This document shows, in pieces, positions 3,205 to 14,872 of a DNA stretch of 64,000 bases. The notes below the pieces were generated by a model. The model saw only the letters and a list, made by a program, of their open reading frames with translations, searched no databases and was not told the DNA's origin. The stretch lies in the NCBI GenBank assembly GCA_041480065.1, contig JBGOZF010000019.1:1194-65193 (forward strand). Direction: 5' to 3'. Source of the DNA: Rhodocyclaceae bacterium. GTDB lineage: Bacteria > Pseudomonadota > Gammaproteobacteria > Burkholderiales > Rhodocyclaceae. The translations under genes were made by a program, and so were the position numbers. Numbering within the stretch: the first letter of the stretch is position 1; every line of letters starts with the position of its first letter.

Positions 3205-3630
3205 TCAGTCAGGCCCAACCATCGGGCACGACAGAACCTGCCGTTCCGGGAGCGGAGAGTTCTTCCAACCGGGCGCAGCCAGATTCTGGAAGGCATCGAG
3301 CGATTGATATCCGGTCACATTCCAACCTGGCCCGCTCGTATGTTCGACCTCGACAACCGCGTACCGGCAATGCTTACTGCGTACCTTCAACCGATAGGCG
3401 ATTCGCCGGCGACCTGGCGAGACGTCCTCTTCCAGGACTTCGTAGCCAGTGGGCTTGCACACACTGAAGCTCGAATTCCACTCGATCGTATTGGCGCGGA
3501 TGTGAAGACCGCCGGAACATGCCCGGCCGGTACCGCCGAACGTGCCCGTGAACGGCTTGTCGGCGGCGAGTGCCGGCGCCGCCGCCATCGCGATACACAG
3601 CAACCAGCAGCCGTTTCTCACGGCGCGCAT
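3205..3630 (-). CDS. Hypothetical secreted protein (141 aa) with signal peptide and 4 Cys
   Basis: MRAVRNGCWLLCIAMAAAPALA then ADKP: Sec signal peptide with AxA cleavage site. The upstream 42 aa of the tabulated ORF are Arg-rich and non-protein-like. Confidence 0.45.
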   Translation of the reverse strand: MRAVRNGCWLLCIAMAAAPALAADKPFTGTFGGTGRACSGGLHIRANTIEWNSSFSVCKPTGYEVLEEDVSPGRRRIAYRLKVRSKHCRYAVVEVEHTSGPGWNVTGYQSLDAFQNLAAPGWKNSPLPERQVLSCPMVGPD

Positions 3631-3850
3631 AGCGCGGCCTTCCGGAATCTCAGCAGTTGGCCCGGGTGCAAAATGTGTGCTGTCGGATTGAGTCTTCTGA
3701 GCGTCTCGACGGTGGTGCCGCGCTCCCCGGAAATTCTGTCGAGGCTGCGACAGCATGGGCGAGTTGTTCGCCTACTACGCCGCCCTCCAGTCCGGTCAAT
3801 CGGAGGCAGGACTTGAAACCGCTCACGCCGTAGGGAAAGTGGCACGATGC

Positions 3851-3945: not shown

Positions 3946-4470
3946 TCAGCCCCGCAAGCGCCGCCGCGCGATCACGCCCAACAGGCCGAGACCGGCAAGC
4001 ATCATGGCGTAGCTTTCAGGTTCCGGCACAGCCGCCGAGGCGGTATACGCGTAGGACGACGGGCTCGGACCCGTCGCCGTACCGGACACCTTGAAGTAGT
4101 AATAACCTTCCACCAGCGGGCCGCCGTTGGTGATGTAGTCACCGGAGCCGATGGTGGCATACAGCGCAAACGTCGTACTGCCGGGTTGAGCGTGGAAGAG
4201 ATCCACCGTCAGGCCGGTGATGTTGGACCCATCCACCTTGGGCTGGTCGGCGATCGTACCCAAACCACTCCAAATGTCATCTGCCGAACCCAGGACCGAG
4301 AACTTGAGCTGATCCGTGAAGGAACCCACATCGTGTTGAATGAACCCGGAGGCGAAATAGGTTTCGCCCGATACGTTTGCCACGTTGCCAAAGTCCAGGA
4401 CCACGTCGTTGGCTGAGGCGCTGGCCATGGCGATGAGGCCAAGCGCTGCCACAAGTGCCTTCAATTTCAT
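3946..4470 (-). CDS. PEP-CTERM sorting-domain protein (exosortase substrate), secreted
   Basis: N-terminal signal MKLKALVAALGLIAMASASA. C-terminus AAVPEPESYAMMLAGLGLLGVIARRRLRG is a VPEP motif, a TM helix and a basic tail, the canonical PEP-CTERM signal. RBS ggaggtcttt precedes the ATG. Confidence 0.75.
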   Translation of the reverse strand: MKLKALVAALGLIAMASASANDVVLDFGNVANVSGETYFASGFIQHDVGSFTDQLKFSVLGSADDIWSGLGTIADQPKVDGSNITGLTVDLFHAQPGSTTFALYATIGSGDYITNGGPLVEGYYYFKVSGTATGPSPSSYAYTASAAVPEPESYAMMLAGLGLLGVIARRRLRG

Positions 4471-4782
4471 AAAGACCTCCGAAAAGAAGAGGGAAAACCT
4501 CCCACCGGGCACGAACCTTGGTTGCAGTCGCGCTGGTAATCTACGTTGCCGCGAGGATTCGAGTCAATGATCCGATCGAGCTAAACCGAAGGTGGTATGA
4601 CGGACGGAGTAGTGGCGACTCGCCTGGCGCAAGTCACGTGGCTTGGCGTCGCTGGGTAACCAGCTTGTGATTGTCTTCACTGAGAACGCCAGAGACGAAG
4701 ACATCGTTCGATTCGTCCGTGAGATTCCGGCCCTGTTGGCGGAAGCGCAGTAGCTGGCATGGCAGTTTGCGAGCGCGTGCGC

Positions 4783-5445
4783 CTACCCTCGCGCCACCGC
4801 GGTGACGACATAGCGAAGCGGCCCGCCGGTGCGCAGGGCGTCGAAGGGCCAGCAGGTAATCAGGGTCAGGCGTGTCGGGCCGGAGGGATCGAGTGGCGAG
4901 AGGTCGGTCTTGTCGGTCACGCGCGTTTCGGTCACGCGGTAGGCCTGCCAGCGGCCGTCCGGCCGTTGCACGCGCAGTTCGTCGCCGACATGCACATCCT
5001 TGAGGAAGCGCAGATGGGTGTCACGGTGGCCGCCGATGACGCTGTTGCCGGCCGTGCCCGGCTCTGCGGTGCCATAGACGTGGCCGGGGCCGAAGGCGAG
5101 CGCGCGGCCGTCGGCCCCGGCGAGAACAAAGAGGTCGACGTCACGCTCAGCCATGATCAGGCGGGCGACCGGCCAGGTGTCGGCCCAGGGCCAGGGCTTG
5201 ACGGCCTTGGCACCCGCCAGCGTCTGAGTCCAGGCGCGCTGCATCAGTACCTGCGCGAGTTCGGCCTTGGCCTTGATGTAGCCAGCCTGCCCGGCATGCC
5301 AGAGGCCGAAGGCCAGCAGCAGGAGAGCGGCGACGCGCAGCCAGCGCCGTTGCCGCCGGCCGGCCACCGGCCTGGCCTCTTGCGGCCAGGCGCATTCGAC
5401 GCCGAGCGGGACTCCGTAGTCGTCGATGAAGCTCGTCGCGCTCAT
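4783..5445 (-). CDS. Sortase family transpeptidase, proteobacterial type (class resembling TIGR03784)
   Basis: VIGGHRDTHLRFL (catalytic His region), TLITCWPFD (TLxTC catalytic Cys), C-terminal RYVV (Arg). Start taken at MSATSF, 11 nt after the stop of the upstream vWA gene. The longer tabulated ORF has a non-protein-like Arg/Gly-rich extension. Confidence 0.8.
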   Translation of the reverse strand: MSATSFIDDYGVPLGVECAWPQEARPVAGRRQRRWLRVAALLLLAFGLWHAGQAGYIKAKAELAQVLMQRAWTQTLAGAKAVKPWPWADTWPVARLIMAERDVDLFVLAGADGRALAFGPGHVYGTAEPGTAGNSVIGGHRDTHLRFLKDVHVGDELRVQRPDGRWQAYRVTETRVTDKTDLSPLDPSGPTRLTLITCWPFDALRTGGPLRYVVTAVARG

Positions 5446-5456
5446 GGCCGCCTGCC

Positions 5457-7556
5457 TCAGGCAAACGCCGGACGGCGCGAGGCGAACATCAGGCCGGCTG
5501 CGAGCAGCATGGCGATGGCGCCGAGCAGCAGATGCCAGGTGCTGTCGGTGGCGCCCTTCGGCAGTTCGCCGAACACGGCCGCGTAGTTCCACCCTTGGGG
5601 CAGGTTGGTCGGCATCGCGCCGCCCTTCAGGTCCGCATCGGCCGGCCGCACGGGCGTCTTGTCCACCGCCACCAGGCTGGTGTATTTGCTCGCCAGGTGA
5701 TGCTCGATGGCGATTTCCACGACCTTCGGCTTGACGTCGTCTTCGGTCGCGCCTTCGCGCAGGCTGTCGACCAGCGACTGGATCTTCTCGCGCGCCCAGA
5801 GCACGCCCAGGCCACTGCCCCGCTCGGCCTTGTCGAGCGCCAGCGTCGCTGCCCACGGCGCATCGCCGCGCAGGCCCGAGATGCGGACATCGCCCTGCAC
5901 CGCCTTGTCGAGCGCGACGCTGACCTGCACCGGCTCGCCGAGGTAGAGGTCGGGCACGCGCGCCAGCCAGGATTCAGCCTTGCCGGGCCAGTCGATGCGC
6001 ACGCCCTTCACTACCGGCGATTCGAGCTTGGCGAAGAGTGCTCCCATCTTCTCTTTCACTTCCTCGATGCGACCGATGTAGGTGAAAGTGCCGCGCCCGG
6101 TCTGCGCCGCCTTGCTCATGAACCAGCTATTGGGCGCCGAGCCGATGCCGACGGTGAAGAGCCGCGTGTCGCCGAGCTTTTCCTGGATCATCTTGAACAA
6201 GGCGTCTTCGTTGCCGACCGAGCCGTCGGTGAGAAAGATCACCTGGCGCACGCGCTGGGTGTCCTCGCTGCCGTTGAGTGCAAGGTTCAGCGCCGAAGCC
6301 ATTTCGGTGCCGCCCTGGGCCCGGAGGCCGTGCACGAAGCTCTTGGCTTTCTTCAGGTTGTCGGCACTCGCCGGTTGCGCATCGGCGAACAGCGGCGTCG
6401 CGGCGGAATTGAACTCGATGACGTTGTAGCGATCGGCCGGAGACAGCCGGGAGACGGCCATCTCCAGCGCTTCCTTGGCTTGCTGGAGCGAAGGTCCCTG
6501 CATCGAGCCGGAGGTGTCGATGATGTAGATCACTTCGCGCGGCAGGCGCACCGATTCGGCGCCGGCGGCCGGCGGCAACAGCATCAGCAGGCCGTAGGTC
6601 CTGCCCTTCCCGGCCTCGGTGAACAGCGCCGCCTGCGGGGCGCGGGTCGGTGTGGGCGTCCACACAAGTTCGAAGTCCTTGTTGGCTGGCACGGCGCCGT
6701 CGGCGAGTTCCACTTGGGCGCTGTGATCGTCCGGCCGCGTCACCTTGACGGCGTGGTAGGGGCTGGCGATGTTCGACAGCGGCACGCCGGCGTCGAGCGT
6801 CACCTTCAGGCGCACGGGGTTGATCGGTGCCTTGCCTTCCTGCGGCTTCACTACCGGCGGCGTGATGCGCGTGGCATCGGGCACCTGGTCGGTGTTGCGC
6901 GCCCATCCCGAAGCGGGTGTGCGGACTTGCCCTTCGGTCGGCGTGCCGGGAATGTAGCGCGGGCCGACGACCATGGGGAAGCGCAGGCTGAAGCTGCCGG
7001 CGTCGTAACGCAGGGTCTGCTGGTATTCGATCTCGACGACGATCTCGCCGCGCGGCGGGATGTTGGCGACGCTGGTGGTGAAGATGTTGGGCCGCTCCTG
7101 CTCGACCAGCGCCGCGCGCTGGCCATTGCTCTTGGCCTGTTCGTAGGTGGCCTTGGCGGCGGCCTTCTCCTTGACGTCGGCCTCGACGATGCGCTCGCCG
7201 ATCTTCATCTTCATGTGATCGACGGCGGCGTTCTCGGGCAGCGGAAAGACGTAGACGCCCTCCTGCCAGTCGTCGCTAGGATTGCGGAAGGTTTGCCGCA
7301 CGCGGGCGCGGCCGACGATGCCGGCGACATGGATGTCGACGTCGGTGTCGAGCACCGGCACCGCGAAGCTGCTGCCACTGGATTTGAAGAGCAGGCTGCC
7401 CTGCTGCGCCTCGGCCGGCCGGGTCGGAATGCGTTCAAGCTCGGCGGCCGCCGCGGCGAACCCGTAGCCGAGCAGCAATACGGCGACGAGAGCAACCGCC
7501 ACGGCCAGGAAGAACTCGGCCGCCGGCGAACGGCGACGAGCGATGGTGTTGTTCAT
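5457..7556 (-). CDS. Sortase target surface protein with VIT and von Willebrand factor A domains and a C-terminal LPxTG-like sorting signal
   Basis: Signal peptide with a TM-like h-region. VIT-like N-terminal region. vWA MIDAS motif IYIIDTSGSMQG. C-terminus ELPKGATDSTWHLLLGAIAMLLAAGLMFASRRP is a motif, a hydrophobic segment and a basic tail. Lies immediately upstream of the sortase gene. Confidence 0.8.
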   Translation of the reverse strand: MNNTIARRRSPAAEFFLAVAVALVAVLLLGYGFAAAAAELERIPTRPAEAQQGSLLFKSSGSSFAVPVLDTDVDIHVAGIVGRARVRQTFRNPSDDWQEGVYVFPLPENAAVDHMKMKIGERIVEADVKEKAAAKATYEQAKSNGQRAALVEQERPNIFTTSVANIPPRGEIVVEIEYQQTLRYDAGSFSLRFPMVVGPRYIPGTPTEGQVRTPASGWARNTDQVPDATRITPPVVKPQEGKAPINPVRLKVTLDAGVPLSNIASPYHAVKVTRPDDHSAQVELADGAVPANKDFELVWTPTPTRAPQAALFTEAGKGRTYGLLMLLPPAAGAESVRLPREVIYIIDTSGSMQGPSLQQAKEALEMAVSRLSPADRYNVIEFNSAATPLFADAQPASADNLKKAKSFVHGLRAQGGTEMASALNLALNGSEDTQRVRQVIFLTDGSVGNEDALFKMIQEKLGDTRLFTVGIGSAPNSWFMSKAAQTGRGTFTYIGRIEEVKEKMGALFAKLESPVVKGVRIDWPGKAESWLARVPDLYLGEPVQVSVALDKAVQGDVRISGLRGDAPWAATLALDKAERGSGLGVLWAREKIQSLVDSLREGATEDDVKPKVVEIAIEHHLASKYTSLVAVDKTPVRPADADLKGGAMPTNLPQGWNYAAVFGELPKGATDSTWHLLLGAIAMLLAAGLMFASRRPAFA

Positions 7557-7705
7557 TGTGACCTCCCGTGAGATTGGGCTTCAGCCCACGGGTGTCATTT
7601 CATGCCCGCCACCGGTCAATGCGATGGAACGAGGCTGGCCGGCCGGCGAGGAATTGTGGCAGGAATGTGGTCCACCGGACTGCGCCGGCGGGTGGCCCGC
7701 CCGAA

Positions 7706-9034
7706 TTACTCCAGCAGCGTGTTGATCGCGATCACGTCTTCGTCGGCGAGATTGCCTGCCGCGGCCTTGAGCTTCAGTTGTGCAACCAGGGTGTCGAGGC
7801 GCGCCTTCATCAGCTTCTGGCGCGTGTCGTAGAGTTGGCTCTGCGCGTTGAGGACGTCGATGTTGATGCGCACGCCCACTTCGTAGCCGAGCTTGTTCGA
7901 ATCCAGCGCGGCCTGCGATGAAGCCACCGCCGCCTCGTAAGCCTTGACCTGCGACAGGCCGGAGCTGACGCCGAGGAAAGCCTGGCGCGCGCCCAGCGCC
8001 GCCTGCCGGCGGGCATTGTCGAGATCGGCAAGGGCCTTCTCGCGCAGCGCCACCGCTTCGGTGGTCTTCGATACCACGTAGCCGCCGGCAAAGAGGGGAA
8101 CAGCCACTTGCAGACCGACGGTCCGGTTGGTGGTGTCGATGCCGGCCCCGCCCGGAACGCTAGCGCTGTAGCCGGCGCCGTTCTTGCCATAGGTGGCGAC
8201 GAGATCGAGCGTCGGCATGTGGCCCGCGCGCTGTTTGCTCACTTCCTGGCTGGCGATTTCCAGCCCTGCCTGCGCCTGCACCACCGTCGGATTGCCGGTC
8301 TCCGCCGTCTCGGCCCACTTCATCATGTCGTCGGGCTGCGGCCGGCTGATCAGCGTTCCCGGCTTCAGGGTCTTCAGGACATCGGGTTCGTTGCCGGCCA
8401 CGGTACGCAGCACCTGCCGCTTGACGGTGAGGTCGCTGTCGGCGGCGATTTCGGTCGCCACCGCGAGGTCGTAGCGCGCCTGGGCTTCGTGGGTATCGGT
8501 GATGGTGGCCGTTCCGACTTCGAAGTTGCGCTTGGCCGATTCGAGCTGCTGGGTGATGGCGATCTTCTGCGCCTGGCTGACGGCAAGGGTTTCCTGCGCC
8601 AGCAGGACATCGAAGTAGGCCTGGGCGACGCGCAGGATCAGGTCCTGCCGGGCAGCGGCGAACTGCGCTTCGGCCTGGGCGACGCCGAACTCCCCCTGTT
8701 TGTAAGTAGCCCAGTTCTGCCAGCGGAACAGCGGCTGCGAGAGTGTCGCGGTCCAGCCATGGCTGTTGTAGTTGAGGCTGCTCTTCGACTGCGGATTCGT
8801 GCGGGGGGTGATGTCGGTGTCGTTCCAGACCGTGTTCGCCGATACGCCCAGGTTCGGCAGCAGACCCGCCCGGCTCTGCGGCAGCCGCTCGCGGCCGGCA
8901 TCGAGGCTGGCCTTGGCGGCGGCGAAGGTGGCGTCGTAGCCGACCGCATCGCGGTAGACGGACGCCAGATCCGCCGCTTGCGCGGCGCTCGCCAGGAACA
9001 TGCCGGATATCAGCAGGGATAGGGTCTTGTTCAT
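7706..9034 (-). CDS. TolC-family outer membrane efflux channel
   Basis: Start at MNKTLSLLISGMFLASAAQA (signal peptide). Two-repeat architecture of helical and beta segments typical of the outer membrane factor family. Ends ...INTLLE. Confidence 0.8.
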   Translation of the reverse strand: MNKTLSLLISGMFLASAAQAADLASVYRDAVGYDATFAAAKASLDAGRERLPQSRAGLLPNLGVSANTVWNDTDITPRTNPQSKSSLNYNSHGWTATLSQPLFRWQNWATYKQGEFGVAQAEAQFAAARQDLILRVAQAYFDVLLAQETLAVSQAQKIAITQQLESAKRNFEVGTATITDTHEAQARYDLAVATEIAADSDLTVKRQVLRTVAGNEPDVLKTLKPGTLISRPQPDDMMKWAETAETGNPTVVQAQAGLEIASQEVSKQRAGHMPTLDLVATYGKNGAGYSASVPGGAGIDTTNRTVGLQVAVPLFAGGYVVSKTTEAVALREKALADLDNARRQAALGARQAFLGVSSGLSQVKAYEAAVASSQAALDSNKLGYEVGVRINIDVLNAQSQLYDTRQKLMKARLDTLVAQLKLKAAAGNLADEDVIAINTLLE

Positions 9035-9050
9035 TGCCAGCTCCGCTCGG

Positions 9051-9374
9051 TCAGTAGGTGGGCATGACGGGATCGACGTCCCGCGCCCAGGCGGCAAGGC
9101 CGCCATGCAAATTGAAGATATTGGTAAAGCCCTGGTATTCCAGGAACATCGCCACCTGGTAACTGCGGGCGCCGTGGTGGCAGATGACGACCGTTTCGGC
9201 GTTGCGGTCGAGCTCCAGGTAGCGAGCCGGCACCGCGCGCATGGGAATCGGCCTGGCGCCGGCGATGCGGCAGACATCCAGTTCCCAGGGTTCCCGCACG
9301 TCGAGCAGCACGGGCCGCGCGCGCGCCGGGTCGTCGAGCCATTCCTTCAGCTGGGCTGCGGCAAGTTGCTGCAT
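9051..9374 (-). CDS. Single-domain rhodanese (sulfurtransferase)
   Basis: 107 aa with the active-site loop VVICHHGARS. Its start ATG overlaps the pcm stop by 1 nt (TGATG). Confidence 0.65.
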   Translation of the reverse strand: MQQLAAAQLKEWLDDPARARPVLLDVREPWELDVCRIAGARPIPMRAVPARYLELDRNAETVVICHHGARSYQVAMFLEYQGFTNIFNLHGGLAAWARDVDPVMPTY

Positions 9375-10042
9375 CAGAGCGTGAATTCCGTACCGACCGG
9401 CGCGTTGCGCAATTGGGCGACGCAGGTCTCGAACAGGCCCTGGCCGCGATAGGCACCTTCGCCGACGCCAGTGACAAGACGGGCGGTTTGCACCGGCGCT
9501 TCGCCGAGGAAGGCGAACAGCCGGCCGCCGACTTTCAGCCGGGCCAGCAGTTCGGCCGGAATTTGGGCGAGGCCACCGGAAAGCATGATGACATCGAACT
9601 GAGCACCGACCGAGCGGGAGACGACGAAGCCATCGCCGGTCTCCACGGTGACATTGCCCAGCCCTGCACGATGCAGGTTGGCGCGGGCGCTGTCGGCCAG
9701 CTCGGGGACGATCTCGATGCTGGTGACGTGATTCGCATGCACGGCGAGCAGGGCGGCCGTGTAGCCGGAACCGGTGCCGATCTCCAGCACGTTCTCCTGC
9801 TTTCGTGGCTTCAGCGCCTGGACGACCGCCGCGTCGATGCGCGGCGTCAGCATCGTGGCGCCATGGCCGAGCGGCAGCGCAACATCGGCGAAGGCAAGAT
9901 GACGAAACGCGGGGGGCACGAATTCCTCGCGGCGGACGACGTGCAACAGCTCGCGCATGTCCTCGCGCAGCGGCTCCGAGGACCGGATCTGCTGCTCGAC
10001 CATGTTGTATCGGGCTTGCTCGAAATTCATCGTGACATGCAT
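9374..10042 (-). CDS. pcm: Protein-L-isoaspartate O-methyltransferase
   Basis: SAM-binding motif VLEIGTGSGY. Overall Pcm-like sequence over 222 aa. Confidence 0.8.
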   Translation of the reverse strand: MHVTMNFEQARYNMVEQQIRSSEPLREDMRELLHVVRREEFVPPAFRHLAFADVALPLGHGATMLTPRIDAAVVQALKPRKQENVLEIGTGSGYTAALLAVHANHVTSIEIVPELADSARANLHRAGLGNVTVETGDGFVVSRSVGAQFDVIMLSGGLAQIPAELLARLKVGGRLFAFLGEAPVQTARLVTGVGEGAYRGQGLFETCVAQLRNAPVGTEFTL

Positions 10043-10128
10043 GGGAGGGTTCGCGGCGAAAGAGCGATGACGAACTGGAGATTAGCATATCCTTATGAAC
10101 GGATACGTTGGTCTGTTGCACGCGAATT

Positions 10129-13100
10129 CTACGCCGGCCCGACCGCACCCGGCTCCCGGACCTTGTACCACGCGGCATAGAGCGCCGGCAGGAACAGGCA
10201 GGTCAGCGCAGTCGCCACGATGAGGCCGCCCATGATGGCCACGGCCATCGGGCCCCAGAACACCTGGCGCGAGAGCGGGATCATCGCCAGCACCGCCGCC
10301 GCCGCCGTCAGCACGATGGGCCGCAGGCGGCGCACGGTGGAGCCGACGATGGCATCCCAGGTGCTCTTGCCGGCGCGTTCGTCCTGGTCGATCTGGTCGA
10401 CCAGGATCACCGAGTTGCGCAGGATCATGCCCATCAATGCAATGACGCCGAGCTGGGCGACGAAACCGAAAGGCGCCTGGAAGATCAGCAGCGACAGTGT
10501 GACGCCGATCAGCCCCAGCGGCGCCGTCAGCAGCACCATGATGGTTCGGCGCATGCTCTGCAACTGGATCATGAGCAATGTAATGACTGCCACCAGCATC
10601 AAGGGCATGACGGCCTGGATGGATTTCTCGCCCTTGCCGGACTCTTCGATCGCGCCACCCATCTCGATGCGGAAACCCGGCGGCAACTTGGCGCGGATGG
10701 GATCGAGTTGCGGGCTGATGCGCGTCGATACCGCCGGACCCGTCGCGTTGCCCAGAAGGTCCGCGCGCACGTTGATCGTCGGCAGGCGGTCACGCCGCCA
10801 GATCAGGCCTTCCTCGAGCACCGGTACCAGCTTGGCCACCTGCGCCAGCGGCACGTGGCGGCCGGTGGCGGTCGGGATGTCGAGGTCGGGCAGGCGATCG
10901 AAGGAATCGCGCTCGGCACCGGACGCGCGCCAGACGACGTCGATCAACTGGTCGCCTTCGCGATACTGGGTGATGGTCGCGCCCTTCAGCCAGGCCTGCA
11001 AAGCGAGCGCCAGGTCCTGACTCGAGATGCCGAGCGCCCGGGCGCGGTCCTGGTCGATCTCGACGCGCAGGCTCTTGCTCTTCTCGTTCCAGTCGAACTG
11101 GACATTCTGCAGGCTGGCATCGGTACGCATGACGACCGCGACCTCTTCGGCGATGGCGCGCAACTGGTCGATATCCTCGCCCATGACCCGGAAGGCCACC
11201 GGGAAGCCGACCGGCGGGCCGTTTTCCAGCCGCAGCACGCGCAGGCGCAGGCCCGACCAGGCGCCATCGCTGTCGGCGAAGCGGGTCTCCAGGCGCTTCT
11301 TCAAGTCCTCGCGCGCTTCGAGTCCCTTGGTGACGACGATGAACTGCGCGAAGTTGTCGGCGAACAGCTGCTGGTTCAGCGGCAGGAAGAAGCGCGGCGG
11401 GCTGTTGCCGACGTAGGCGGACTGGGATTCGACGGCGTCGTCACCGGTCAGCAGTTTCTCGACCTGCTCCACCGCTGTCTCGGTTGCCTTGAGCGATGCC
11501 CCCTGCGGCAGCCAGAGTTCGATCAGAAGCTCGGGGCGCGAGGACGCCGGGAAGAACTGCTTCTTCACCACCGTAGCGAAGACCGCGACCGAGACGGCGA
11601 AGGTGACGACCGTGGCGCCGATCACCAGCCAGCGCCGGCGCAGGCACCATGTCACCAGGGCCCTGAAGCGCAGATAGAAGGGCGAACCGTAGATGTCGCC
11701 GCCATGCTTGGCGCCGAGGGCGGCGAGCTTCTCCGGGTTGAGTATCTTGTAGCCCAGGTAAGGCGTGAACACGACGGCCACGACCCAGGACACGATCAAC
11801 GCGATGGTGACCACCGAGAAGATCGAGAAGGTGTACTCGCCGGCGGAGGACTTCGCAAATCCGACCGGCGTGAAGGCGGCGGCGGTGATCAGCGTGCCGG
11901 TGAGCATCGGGAAGGCCGTCGAAGTGTAGGCGAAGGTGGCCGCCTTGAAGCGGTCCCAGCCCTGCTCCATCTTCACGACCATCATTTCGACGGCGATGAT
12001 GGCATCGTCGACCAGCAGGCCGAGTGCGATCACCAATGCACCGAGCGACACGCGTTGCAGGTCGATGCCGAAGACGCGCATCAGGAAGAAGGTAATGGCC
12101 AGCACCAGCGGGATCGACAAGGCGACCACGGTGCCGGTGCGCCAGCCGAGGCTGAGGAAGGAGACCGCCAGAACGATCACAACTGCTTCGGTGAGCGACT
12201 CGACGAAGAGCCGGATCGACATCTTCACGACCTCCGGCTGGTCGGAGACATTGTTGACCTCGATACCGGCCGGCAGGTTGGCGGACAGGCGCTGCATCGC
12301 CGCCTTCAGGTTCTCGCCGAGGCGGATGACGTCCCCGCCCTTGTCCATCACCACGCCGATGCCGATCGCATCCTTGCCGGCCACGCGCATGCGCGGGCTG
12401 GGCGGGTCGGCGAAGCCGCGCTTCGCCTCGGCGATGTCGCCCAGGCGGAAATGGCGGCCGCCGACGGCGAGGTCGGTCTCGCGGATCTTGTCGGCGGTAT
12501 CGTAGGGGCCCGTCACGCGCAGGCGGACGCGCTCGCTGTCGGTTTCGATGAAGCCGGCCGCGGCGACGGCGTTCTGGCGTTGCAGGGCGTCGAAGATCTG
12601 GCTGGGCTGGATGCCGAGCGCGGCGAGGCGGGTCGGCGTCACCTCGACGTAGATCTTCTCGTCCTGGACGCCGATCAACTCGACCTTGCGGACATCCGGC
12701 ACCCATTTCAGCTCGCGCGCGATGCGGTCGGCTTCGCCGCGGAGTTCACCAAGATCGAAACCATCGCCGGTCAGCGCGTAGATGCTCACATCGACGTCGC
12801 CGAATTCGTCGTTCGGGTACGGGCCCTGGACCCCCGCTGGCAAGGTGTGCTGTATGTCGTCGAGCTTCTTGCGTACCTGGCGCCAGGCTTCGGGCACTTC
12901 CGATTTGGGCGTGAAGTCCTTTAGCGTAAGCAAGAGCAGCGACTGGCCCGGCTTCGACGCTGAGGTCATGACGTCGACCCAGGGCGTTTCGGTGAGCTTC
13001 TTCTCGATACGCTCGGTGAGTTCCGATTCCACTTGCTGCGCCGTCGCACCCGGCCAGAGCGTGCGCACGATCATGACCTTGAAGGTGAAGTCCGGGTCCT

Positions 13101-13215
13101 CGGCGCGGCCCAGCTTGAGGTAGGAAATCGCACCCGCGGCCATCAGGACGATGATGAGATAGAGCACCATCGACGGATGCTCGAGGGACCACGCGGAGAG
13201 GTTGATGTTCTTCAT
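10129..13215 (-). CDS. RND efflux transporter permease subunit (AcrB/HAE1-like, 1028 aa)
   Basis: Twelve-TM, two-large-loop RND architecture with characteristic motifs throughout. Start ATG overlaps the MFP stop (ATGA). Confidence 0.9.
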   Translation of the reverse strand: MKNINLSAWSLEHPSMVLYLIIVLMAAGAISYLKLGRAEDPDFTFKVMIVRTLWPGATAQQVESELTERIEKKLTETPWVDVMTSASKPGQSLLLLTLKDFTPKSEVPEAWRQVRKKLDDIQHTLPAGVQGPYPNDEFGDVDVSIYALTGDGFDLGELRGEADRIARELKWVPDVRKVELIGVQDEKIYVEVTPTRLAALGIQPSQIFDALQRQNAVAAAGFIETDSERVRLRVTGPYDTADKIRETDLAVGGRHFRLGDIAEAKRGFADPPSPRMRVAGKDAIGIGVVMDKGGDVIRLGENLKAAMQRLSANLPAGIEVNNVSDQPEVVKMSIRLFVESLTEAVVIVLAVSFLSLGWRTGTVVALSIPLVLAITFFLMRVFGIDLQRVSLGALVIALGLLVDDAIIAVEMMVVKMEQGWDRFKAATFAYTSTAFPMLTGTLITAAAFTPVGFAKSSAGEYTFSIFSVVTIALIVSWVVAVVFTPYLGYKILNPEKLAALGAKHGGDIYGSPFYLRFRALVTWCLRRRWLVIGATVVTFAVSVAVFATVVKKQFFPASSRPELLIELWLPQGASLKATETAVEQVEKLLTGDDAVESQSAYVGNSPPRFFLPLNQQLFADNFAQFIVVTKGLEAREDLKKRLETRFADSDGAWSGLRLRVLRLENGPPVGFPVAFRVMGEDIDQLRAIAEEVAVVMRTDASLQNVQFDWNEKSKSLRVEIDQDRARALGISSQDLALALQAWLKGATITQYREGDQLIDVVWRASGAERDSFDRLPDLDIPTATGRHVPLAQVAKLVPVLEEGLIWRRDRLPTINVRADLLGNATGPAVSTRISPQLDPIRAKLPPGFRIEMGGAIEESGKGEKSIQAVMPLMLVAVITLLMIQLQSMRRTIMVLLTAPLGLIGVTLSLLIFQAPFGFVAQLGVIALMGMILRNSVILVDQIDQDERAGKSTWDAIVGSTVRRLRPIVLTAAAAVLAMIPLSRQVFWGPMAVAIMGGLIVATALTCLFLPALYAAWYKVREPGAVGPA

Positions 13216-14224
13216 TGCAGAGCGCGAACCTTCTGCCCGGCCGTGAGTTTGTGCACGCCGGCGGCGACGATGCGCTCGCCCGGCTGGAGGCCATCGGCGA
13301 CTGTCGCGCCCGCGTCCGTATACGCGGAGACGGCGACCGGCCGCAGGGTGAGCGTCAAATCCTGCCCCACCACCCAGACGGCCGGGCGGTCGCCCTGCTG
13401 GAATACCGCGGAGAGCGGTATGGCGAGGGCTGGCTGCTTGCCGGCGGTAAAGCGCACGGTGGCGGTCATGCCCAGCGCGACCGATGCATCCGCATTGAGC
13501 AGGCTGACGCGGGCGGCGAAGGTGCGGGTCGTCGGGTCGGCCGCCGGCGCCAGTTCGCGCAGCCTGCCCCGGTAGGCCTTGCCGCCCGACCAGAGCGTGA
13601 CGGCGGCTTCGTCCCCGACCTTGATGCCGGTGATGACCGATTCGGGCAGCGAGATCGCGACTTCGCGCTCGCCATCCTGGGCAATCCGGAACACCGGTTG
13701 GCCCGACGCTACCACCTGCCCGGGTTCGCCGAGAACCGCAGCGATGACGCCCGGCCGGTCTGCCGCCAGTTGCGCGTAGGCCGACTGGTTGCGGGCAATG
13801 CCGGCTTGCGACTCCGCGGCCTTGAGCGCGGTTTCCTTGGCGTCCAGCGCGGCGGAACTGACGAAGTTCTGCGCCCGCAAGTCGCGGTAGCGCTTGGCAT
13901 CGGCCTGTGCGAGCACCAACTGCGATTGCGCCTGCGCCGACTGTAATGCCACGTCGGCCGGGTCCAGGCGCGCGAGCAGTTGGCCCGCGGTAACGTGGGC
14001 ACCGGCATCGACCTTGCGTTCGACCAGCTTGCCGCCGATGCGGAACGACAAGGGGACTTCGTAGCGCGCGTGAACTTCGCCACTGTAGCTGCGCGCCGCA
14101 TCCGCGGCCGTGGTTCCGGCGACGATGATCTTCACCACGGTCACTTCATGCGGTGGCGGCGCGGATTCGCCGCACGCGCAGAGGGCGATCGTCGCCACCA
14201 GGACAGCCAGGGTTCGGTAGGTCA
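13212..14224 (-). CDS. RND efflux periplasmic adaptor subunit (membrane fusion protein, lipoprotein)
   Basis: Start at [19 protein letters not shown] (lipobox). HlyD-like coiled coil and beta-barrel domains. ATGA overlap with the tetR stop. Confidence 0.85.
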
Positions 14225-14872
14225 TGGTTTGGGCTCCCGTAACGCGAGGCCGTGGGTAAGGATATCGACAGCCTGATTGAGAAATTCTTCGGCCTCGGGC
14301 AGGTCGCACATGAAACCCGCGAAGCTCCGCCGCCAGATGATGAACGAGAACATGGGCGCAAAGACGATGCGCGCGGCCAGCGCTGCCGGTACCGGGCGGA
14401 AGTCGCCGGCGGCGATGCCCTGCTCGATGATGCGGATCATCGCCCGGTGCGCACGGCTGATCAGCGAATCGTGAAACCAGCGGGAGAGTTCCGGGAAGTT
14501 GCCCGATTCGGCGACCAGCAACTTGGGCACCGCGCCCAGCGCCGTGGAGCCCACCATTTGCCACCAGCCGAACACAAACTCGCGCAGGAGGTCTGCCGCC
14601 GGCCGGCTGGTGTCACCGGCCAGCGCCTCGGCTGCTTCGACCGCCGGCATCATGGCCGCCTCGACCGCGGCCTTGAACAATGCTTCCTTGCTGTCGAAGT
14701 AGAGATAGACCGTGCCCTTCGATACGCCGGCGTGGGCAGCGATGTCTTCGAGCCGAGTAGCGGCGAAGCCCTTCTCGGCGAACACGTCCAGCGCCGCGGC
14801 CGCGATCTCGCCCGGCCGTGCCTCCTTGCGCCGGCGGCGGATGAACTTCTGGATGGGGCAACAGGCTTTCAT
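14222..14872 (-). CDS. TetR/AcrR-family transcriptional regulator, first gene of the efflux operon
   Basis: Classic Tet[50 protein letters not shown]. Start at MKACCPIQ. Confidence 0.85.

Follow-up and report, generated by a model that had tools for sequence, protein, structure and literature searches.

A window of 64,000 nucleotides from a Rhodocyclaceae bacterium, an uncultured betaproteobacterium (the whole stretch of contig JBGOZF010000019.1, assembly GCA_041480065.1, that was analysed) carries two adjacent genes, for a class GN sortase and for a large protein with VIT and vWA domains, which very probably form a dedicated two-gene cassette in which the enzyme recognises LPKGAT as the sorting motif of its partner. 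Judged from profiles, gene order and domain architecture, the locus belongs, as an ordinary representative, to the catalogued class GN sortase and VIT-vWA target system, and it is routine for annotation, the family being catalogued and both proteins being named already by existing pipelines. The point of interest lies at the fourth position of the motif, where about one quarter of the targets sampled here, including the whole clade of the window protein, have glycine in place of the threonine of studied sortase substrates. On the evidence of the alignments, LPKGAT represents a common allele in a known system, and what sets the locus apart from the archetype described in Shewanella, the Pds system, is the glycine and the lack of PdsO, PdsR and PdsS nearby. 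This poses a concrete question of specificity for class GN enzymes and provides a natural pair of G and T substrate alleles for comparison.

A sortase and its adjacent VIT-vWA target

Both genes lie on the same strand, the target first, and are separated by only 11 nt (coordinates are given in Table 1). An earlier note on this DNA, made from the letters alone, had proposed a Gram-negative sortase with an adjacent VIT-vWA substrate, and the profile searches bear this out. The target scores 808.6 bits with TIGR03788 ('marine proteobacterial sortase target protein', an equivalog model) against a cut-off of 551.65, over positions 1-629 of the 629 in the model, and the sortase scores 216.9 bits with TIGR03784 ('class GN sortase') against a curated equivalog cut-off of 158.25; the Pfam domains of both proteins agree, the sortase matching PF04203 at E 9.7e-28. 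The catalytic residues picked out in the note, the Cys of TLITC, a His and an Arg, correspond to C198, H140 and R211, which align with those of the Bacillus anthracis class D sortase 2LN7 and are each at least 95% conserved among 67 family sortases. Its reading of the substrate was likewise correct, both for the tail (ELPKGATDST, a hydrophobic helix and RRP) and for DTSGS, the metal ion-dependent adhesion site (MIDAS) of the vWA domain.

The minus-strand frames are taken as the real genes because their GC content at third codon positions (GC3), at 0.88 in the target gene and 0.86 in the sortase gene within a genome of 66% GC, lies above that of the overlapping shadow open reading frames (ORFs), at 0.47-0.75. 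The plus-strand ORFs at 5532..7571 and 4759..5586 were set aside as such shadows by codon-position GC. The target ends in a TGA at 5459-5457, and position 4783 closes the sortase stop codon and does not mark the start of the gene. The ATG at 5445 is read as the true sortase start because homologues of 219-221 aa cover 99-100% of the query translated from it; a 357-aa ORF with a GTG start (4783..5856) overlaps the target and was not preferred. The promoter and terminator scan across TolC, target and sortase gave nothing convincing, with no terminator-like site between target and sortase, and from this layout the two genes are likely co-transcribed. Of 80 species loci, about 75 have the sortase gene directly after that of the target.

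The AlphaFold 2 (AF2) model of the target (mean predicted local distance difference test score, pLDDT, 79.9) runs from an N-terminal helix through a VIT beta-sandwich, a middle beta domain and the vWA domain to a C-terminal mixed domain ending at about residue 647. Alignment A1, which comprises 40 diverse target homologues at 41-66% identity, shows no variation at the MIDAS residues D347, S349, S351, T417 and D444. The tail reads F-G-E664-L665-P-K-G668-A-T670-D-S-T-W-H, a hydrophobic helix and S-R694-R695-P-A-F-A, and thus holds a complete tripartite sorting signal, consisting of LPKGAT, a transmembrane helix and the RR pair. Residues 664-671 are disordered in the model and the terminal helix (672-693) comes next, so that LPKGAT sits in a disordered linker directly ahead of the transmembrane helix. 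The target is the only ORF of the window with a tail of this kind, no second one having been found, and the one-enzyme, one-substrate arrangement suggested in the earlier note is supported to that extent, over these 64 kb.

A second motif-like sequence, N-L-P-Q-G-W at residues 651-656, was considered as the sorting motif and discarded, since it closes the folded domain, sits 20 residues away from the transmembrane helix and co-occurs with LPQTAT in targets of the T type. In the AF2 model it comes after the final beta-strand, some 10 residues ahead of LPKGAT, and its P653 and G655 are at least 90% conserved in A1 and invariant in alignment A3 (40 target homologues of the clade of the window protein, 60-82% identity). 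This N-L-P-x-G-W element could be a sortase exosite.

In the sortase model (pLDDT 84.2), the membrane anchor forms part of a long helix at the N-terminus, and behind it comes a beta-barrel of the sortase type, which Foldseek aligns with structures of class A, C, D and E sortases at a root-mean-square deviation of about 2 Å over some 135 residues. The sequence search of solved structures returned no class GN sortase, and 2LN7 was the best solved relative, at E 4.4e-8. Residues 13-19 (5389-5409, minus strand) read P-L-G-V-E-C-A and are near-invariant in alignment A2, which holds the sortases of the betaproteobacterial clade; the segment belongs to the cytoplasmic N-terminal tail and is disordered in the model, and such conservation ahead of a membrane anchor is unexpected.

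Glycine at position 4 of the sorting motif

LPKGAT occupies the columns of A1 whose consensus is LPQTAT, with P666, A669 and T670 at least 90% conserved and position 668 below that level. Every one of the 120 closest homologues (59-100% identity) has Gly at motif position 4, a transmembrane helix and basic residues; the motif reads LPQGAT in 93 of them, LPKGAT in 11, LPRGAT in 11 and LPKGAA in 2, and the remaining three begin with PQGAT at the edge of the 50-residue segment extracted. Those that carry a name are from Rhodocyclaceae, Zoogloeaceae, Denitratisoma or Burkholderiales metagenome-assembled genomes (MAGs). In A3, L665, P666, G668 and A669 are invariant and F662, E664, T670 and D671 nearly so, and the codon for the Gly differs by lineage, being GGC, GGT or GGG. 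The motif therefore does not lie elsewhere, nor is the C-terminus atypical or frameshifted, the two outcomes that the earlier note had held against itself, because all 120 homologues keep the motif, the helix and the basic residues; a frameshift or sequencing error at the C-terminus was rejected, the tail being collinear with those of the same 120 proteins.

Beyond the clade, variation was counted in 151 representatives of 50%-identity clusters from an exhaustive HMMER search, 131 of which have a recognisable motif before the C-terminal transmembrane helix. At position 1, L occurs 64 times, Y 28, M 10 and F 10; at position 2, P occurs 113 times and A 18; at position 3, Q occurs 58 times, A 19, R 17, K 14, S 7 and N 6; at position 4, Thr predominates with 94 cases, followed by Gly with 31, Ser with 4 and Ala with 2; position 5 holds A 105 times and G 18; and position 6 holds T 121 times. 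These counts give x-P-x-[T/G]-[A/G]-T as the signature of the family, with the Thr of position 6 the best conserved, and Gly stands at position 4 in about 24% of the representatives. The consensus given in the earlier note, LP(Q/K)T(A/S)T, proves too narrow, since Y, M and F occur besides L at position 1, A, R, S and N besides Q and K at position 3, and G besides T at position 4. Its description of the Gly as a variant site is right in that Gly does replace Thr, and wrong if taken as peculiar to this locus, the residue being fixed in the clade and recurrent in the family. The conserved core of the motif is P-x-x-A-T, Thr at position 4 being seemingly dispensable.

A rough neighbour-joining tree of 215 targets, built with the last 60 residues removed, places the 51 G-type proteins in one 18-member clade, which holds the window protein, and in about 30 small separate clades. 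It calls for at least 38 state changes at position 4, against a mean of 52.6 with shuffled labels, and repeated switching between T and G is clear, though the tree is crude. A change from T to G needs two nucleotide substitutions, with S and A as possible one-step intermediates, and the occurrence of both S and A at position 4 is consistent with a tolerance for small residues there.

No counterpart to the switch was found in the enzyme. The 67 target-sortase pairs taken from GTDB species genomes include 7 of the G type, which come from beta-, gamma- and alphaproteobacteria (a Burkholderiales MAG, a Thiotrichales MAG, a Pseudomonadales MAG, Oceanibacterium and Kiloniellales); no sortase column separates them from the T-type pairs, the best being G189 (71% vs 10%) in a comparison that is underpowered with 7 G-type pairs, and the G-type sortases are no nearer to each other than to T-type ones.

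As far as the alignments speak, the Gly of position 4 is real, a conserved variant that recurs within the family and neither an error nor a one-off, and the reading favoured here is that it is probably a functional, selected allele of the family signature.

The family itself is large, with more than 6,700 protein clusters scoring E<=1e-30 against the target. It also reaches beyond its 'marine proteobacterial' name, the target-then-sortase order being kept in Nitrospira and other Nitrospirota, in Vicinamibacteria and in other Acidobacteriota-like MAGs (loci L009, L014, L017, L019-L022, L027, L030, L031, L052 and L073).

The proposed anchoring reaction and its relatives

In the mechanism proposed here, the target would be exported through its N-terminal hydrophobic segment, and its ectodomain (VIT, beta domain, MIDAS-bearing vWA and C-terminal domain) would be held in the inner membrane by the C-terminal helix and the RR pair, with LPKGAT exposed beyond the membrane surface on its disordered linker. 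The gene that follows encodes a membrane-anchored Cys-His-Arg sortase whose catalytic domain is expected to face the periplasm and which would cleave inside LPKGAT, most likely between G668 and A669, after the pattern of LPXT↓G and of the class D signal LPNT↓A. A thioacyl intermediate would form, and the new C-terminus of the target would be transferred to an amine, the most probable acceptor being, as in class D, the side chain of meso-diaminopimelate (m-Dpm) in peptidoglycan or lipid II, with the outcome that an adhesin-like vWA protein becomes fixed in the cell envelope. Gram-negative peptidoglycan contains m-Dpm, and because of this and of the chemistry of class D SrtC, cleavage at G668↓A669 with attachment to m-Dpm would be the most economical model. 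The B. anthracis enzyme SrtC cleaves LPNT↓A with m-Dpm as the nucleophile (PMC3297441).

Class D, represented by SrtC and SrtD of B. anthracis and by the LPxTATN-specific SrtD, holds the nearest sortase families outside class GN. The window sortase is related to them and scores below their cut-offs (NF033746, 80.7 bits vs 165; NF058671, 80.4 vs 140), hence it is no member. The class D signals (LPNTA and LPxTATN) have the P-x-T-A-T core in common with the class GN target signal, and class D enzymes likewise serve few, dedicated substrates; the window system differs in its Gram-negative host, in the Gly at position 4 and in having a large VIT-vWA substrate instead of a spore-envelope protein. 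With canonical SrtA and its LPXTG signals (TIGR01167), the locus has in common the tripartite signal, the Cys-His-Arg sortase fold and Leu-Pro at positions 1-2, whereas its motif, L-P-K-G-A, has neither Thr at position 4 nor Gly at position 5, and a one-to-one pair in the periplasm stands in place of one enzyme with many substrates at the cell surface. Two signal models tie as the best for the isolated tail at about 16 bits, that for the LPxTATN signal of class D SrtD, where it falls below the cut-off of 32, and TIGR01167, where its 16.1 bits (cut-off 15.9) come from model positions 6-32 only, the part covering the transmembrane helix and tail; with the full-length target, no TIGR01167 match is reported at E<=0.01.

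The best solved match of the ectodomain is human inter-alpha-inhibitor heavy chain 1, ITIH1 (6FPY; E 6.8e-34, 627 aligned columns), which likewise combines a VIT domain with a MIDAS-bearing vWA domain and gives a TM-score of 0.63 normalised by target length, at an identity of only 15%. The processed C-terminus of ITIH heavy chains is covalently transferred to a glycan polymer, by an ester linkage of a C-terminal Asp to chondroitin sulfate or hyaluronan in which no sortase takes part. This likeness is an analogy and does not count as evidence.

The closest described system is Pds, known from Shewanella oneidensis (SO2195/SO2196) and from the pds locus of S. algae. The window pair and Pds both pass the two equivalog models and have in common the target-then-sortase order, the VIT-vWA architecture of the target, the tripartite C-terminal signal and the N-terminal sortase anchor; they differ in the Gly for Thr at motif position 4 and in that the 64 kb analysed here hold neither an OmpA-like PdsO nor a divergent PdsR/PdsS pair, the cassette sitting behind TolC instead. 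In Shewanella, five genes are described: PdsS/PdsR (= PghK/PghR), the OmpA-like PdsO, the target and the sortase (PMC11580497; bioRxiv 10.1101/2023.05.05.539549). Beta-lactams and the loss of PBP1a strongly induce the orthologous operon (bioRxiv 10.1101/2023.05.05.539549), as does a gain-of-function mutation in pdsS (PMC11580497), which fits a role in the envelope or peptidoglycan. Across the family, about 14 of 80 loci have a PdsO-like OmpA-family gene (TIGR03789 type) directly ahead of the target, and about 24 of 80 have a two-component response regulator and histidine kinase; judged by these gene neighbourhoods, the missing partners are not exceptional here. The system is widespread, and its Shewanella operon is tied to the response to peptidoglycan damage and beta-lactams.

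Several points weigh against the cassette as proposed. Its cleavage site and acceptor are drawn only by analogy. To our knowledge, every characterised sortase has Thr at the residue ahead of the scissile bond (P1), so Gly as an acyl donor is unproven, and the Thr of position 6 is better conserved than position 4 (n=131), so that the register of cleavage may be a different one. The literature searched held no biochemical work on a class GN sortase, and nothing of relevance to LPQGAT, LPKGAT or LPQTAT came up in full texts; a 2023 preprint calls the role of sortases in Gram-negative bacteria unknown (bioRxiv 10.1101/2023.05.05.539549). In the window, phmmer searches with the PdsO-like proteins of loci L003 and L009 gave no PdsO match among the ORFs, and no homologue was found of the response regulator and histidine kinase of a Rhodocyclaceae locus (L081).

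The conservation of position 6 gives rise to a different register, with the scissile bond after its Thr (G-A-T670↓D), in which the T/G site would be a tolerant P3 position and the likeness to LPXT↓G only partial. In its favour, position 6 is T in 121/131 and position 5 is A or G in 123/131 where position 4 flips between T and G (also S and A), a pattern repeated by the at least 90% conservation of P666, A669 and T670, and not of 668, in A1. We nevertheless regard this register as quite improbable, as the closest enzymes are those of class D, whose SrtC in B. anthracis cuts after position 4 with Pro at P3; the small residues T, G, S and A would also fit a tolerant P1 pocket, and we know of no precedent for a register with Pro at P5. 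A doubtful prospect, for its part, is that the acceptor lies outside peptidoglycan, whether an envelope protein (for example OmpA-like or Lpp-like) or a lipid, or that the enzyme is a mere protease releasing the ectodomain to the periplasm. The PdsO-like genes next to some targets would suit such an acceptor, as would the fact that no acceptor has yet been identified and that deletion of the sortase system in S. oneidensis left ampicillin resistance unchanged (both bioRxiv 10.1101/2023.05.05.539549); on the other side, PdsO is missing from the window and from most loci, and so is not an obligatory acceptor, and the nearest characterised sortases use the m-Dpm of peptidoglycan.

Scarcely credible is the view that LPKGAT is a decayed signal, or the product of a sequencing or frameshift error, and that the pairing of enzyme and substrate has been lost. 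The Thr that is canonical at position 4 of LPXTG is indeed missing, and TIGR01167 aligns with only the transmembrane and tail part of the isolated C-terminus, but F-G-E-L-P-x-G-A-T-D is invariant or nearly so in the 40 homologues of A3, the 120 nearest relatives are all G-type with helix and basic tail intact, the sortase triad is intact, and the frame is continuous with a GC3 of 0.88; sequence comparison effectively refutes this reading. The dedicated cassette with LPKGAT as its sorting motif remains the favoured reading. A bolder and unlikely reading is that class GN sortases break the Thr-at-P1 rule, either by forming the acyl-enzyme on Gly (LPxG↓AT) or by cutting after the Thr of position 6; if true, cleavage at position 6 would be a register unlike that of any characterised sortase, and the G-fixed betaproteobacterial clade would be a natural test case.

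Gene layout and neighbourhood

The target and sortase close a same-strand cluster (7706-14564 for its upstream part) of genes for an RND adaptor, an RND permease, a PIMT-like methyltransferase, a rhodanese and TolC. A relative whose target is 81% identical (P0002) has the same order, RND, PCMT, rhodanese, outer-membrane efflux protein, target and sortase, and no terminator is predicted in the 149-nt gap between TolC and the target; because of both, co-transcription of TolC with the cassette is possible. An Rfam scan of the window gave zero matches.

Table 1. Features of the sortase locus and its neighbours, in window coordinates
Feature	Position	Strand	Basis or remark
RND adaptor	13212-14564	-	Upstream of target
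RND permease	10129-13215	-	Upstream of target
PIMT-like methyltransferase	9374-10042	-	Upstream of target
Rhodanese-like ORF		-	Upstream of target, in RND-TolC cluster
TolC	7706-9025	-	Directly upstream of target
GGAGG ribosome-binding site, 5 nt 5' of target ATG	7562..7566	-	Read from sequence
Sortase target gene, VIT-vWA, 699 aa	5457..7556	-	ATG start; TIGR03788, GC3, AF2 model
N-terminal hydrophobic segment, residues 9-41, predicted signal peptide or signal anchor	7434..7532	-	Hydropathy peak 2.59; AF2 helix 11-39
VIT domain, residues 70-178	7023..7349	-	PF08487, E 3.9e-37
vWA domain, residues 341-491	6084..6536	-	PF13768 (E 1.5e-22), PF13519, PF00092
MIDAS DTSGS, residues 347-351, inside vWA	6504-6518	-	Sequence and alignment A1
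Conserved N-L-P-Q-G-W, residues 651-656, end of folded ectodomain	5589..5606	-	A1, A3, AF2
Sorting motif L665-P-K-G668-A-T670, codons CTG CCG AAG GGC GCC ACC	5547..5564	-	Alignments A1 and A3; AF2
C-terminal transmembrane helix, L676-A692	5481..5531	-	Hydropathy 2.01-2.5; AF2 helix 672-693
Basic stop-transfer residues R694-R695	5472..5477	-	Sequence; RR pair conserved in homologues
Intergenic spacer, 11 nt, ggcaggcggcc	5446..5456	-	Between target stop and sortase ATG
Class GN sortase gene, 220 aa	4783..5445	-	ATG at 5445; TIGR03784, PF04203, AF2 model
Sortase N-terminal membrane anchor, about residues 35-55, WLRVAALLLLAFGLWHAGQAG	5281..5343	-	Sequence; inside AF2 helix 30-76
Catalytic His140 codon (GGHRDTH)	5026..5028	-	Aligns with His of 2LN7; invariant in A2
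Catalytic Cys198 codon (TLITC)	4852..4854	-	Aligns with Cys of 2LN7
Catalytic Arg211 codon	4813..4815	-	Aligns with Arg of 2LN7
FxDxF-family PEP-CTERM protein	3946-4512	-	Directly downstream of sortase; NF038126, 96 bits

The neighbourhood differs in a Rhodocyclaceae relative whose target is 66% identical (P0034, motif LPQGAT; L081/L082), where a divergent OmpR-type response regulator and histidine kinase precede the target and a 160-aa YkuD (L,D-transpeptidase) gene (10820-11302, plus strand) starts 14 nt after the sortase. The YkuD neighbour is specific to that lineage, with one marginal match (E 9.9e-5) across 80 other loci, and no YkuD L,D-transpeptidase was found in the 64-kb window.

Downstream of the sortase, on the same strand, lie a 183-aa ORF (3205-3756) with an N-terminal hydrophobic segment and no NCBIfam match, and a 655-aa ORF (678-2645) with a weak TolA-like match only (E 2.5e-4). 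The PEP-CTERM protein encoded between these ORFs and the sortase indicates that the organism also has an exosortase-type sorting signal beside the sortase system.

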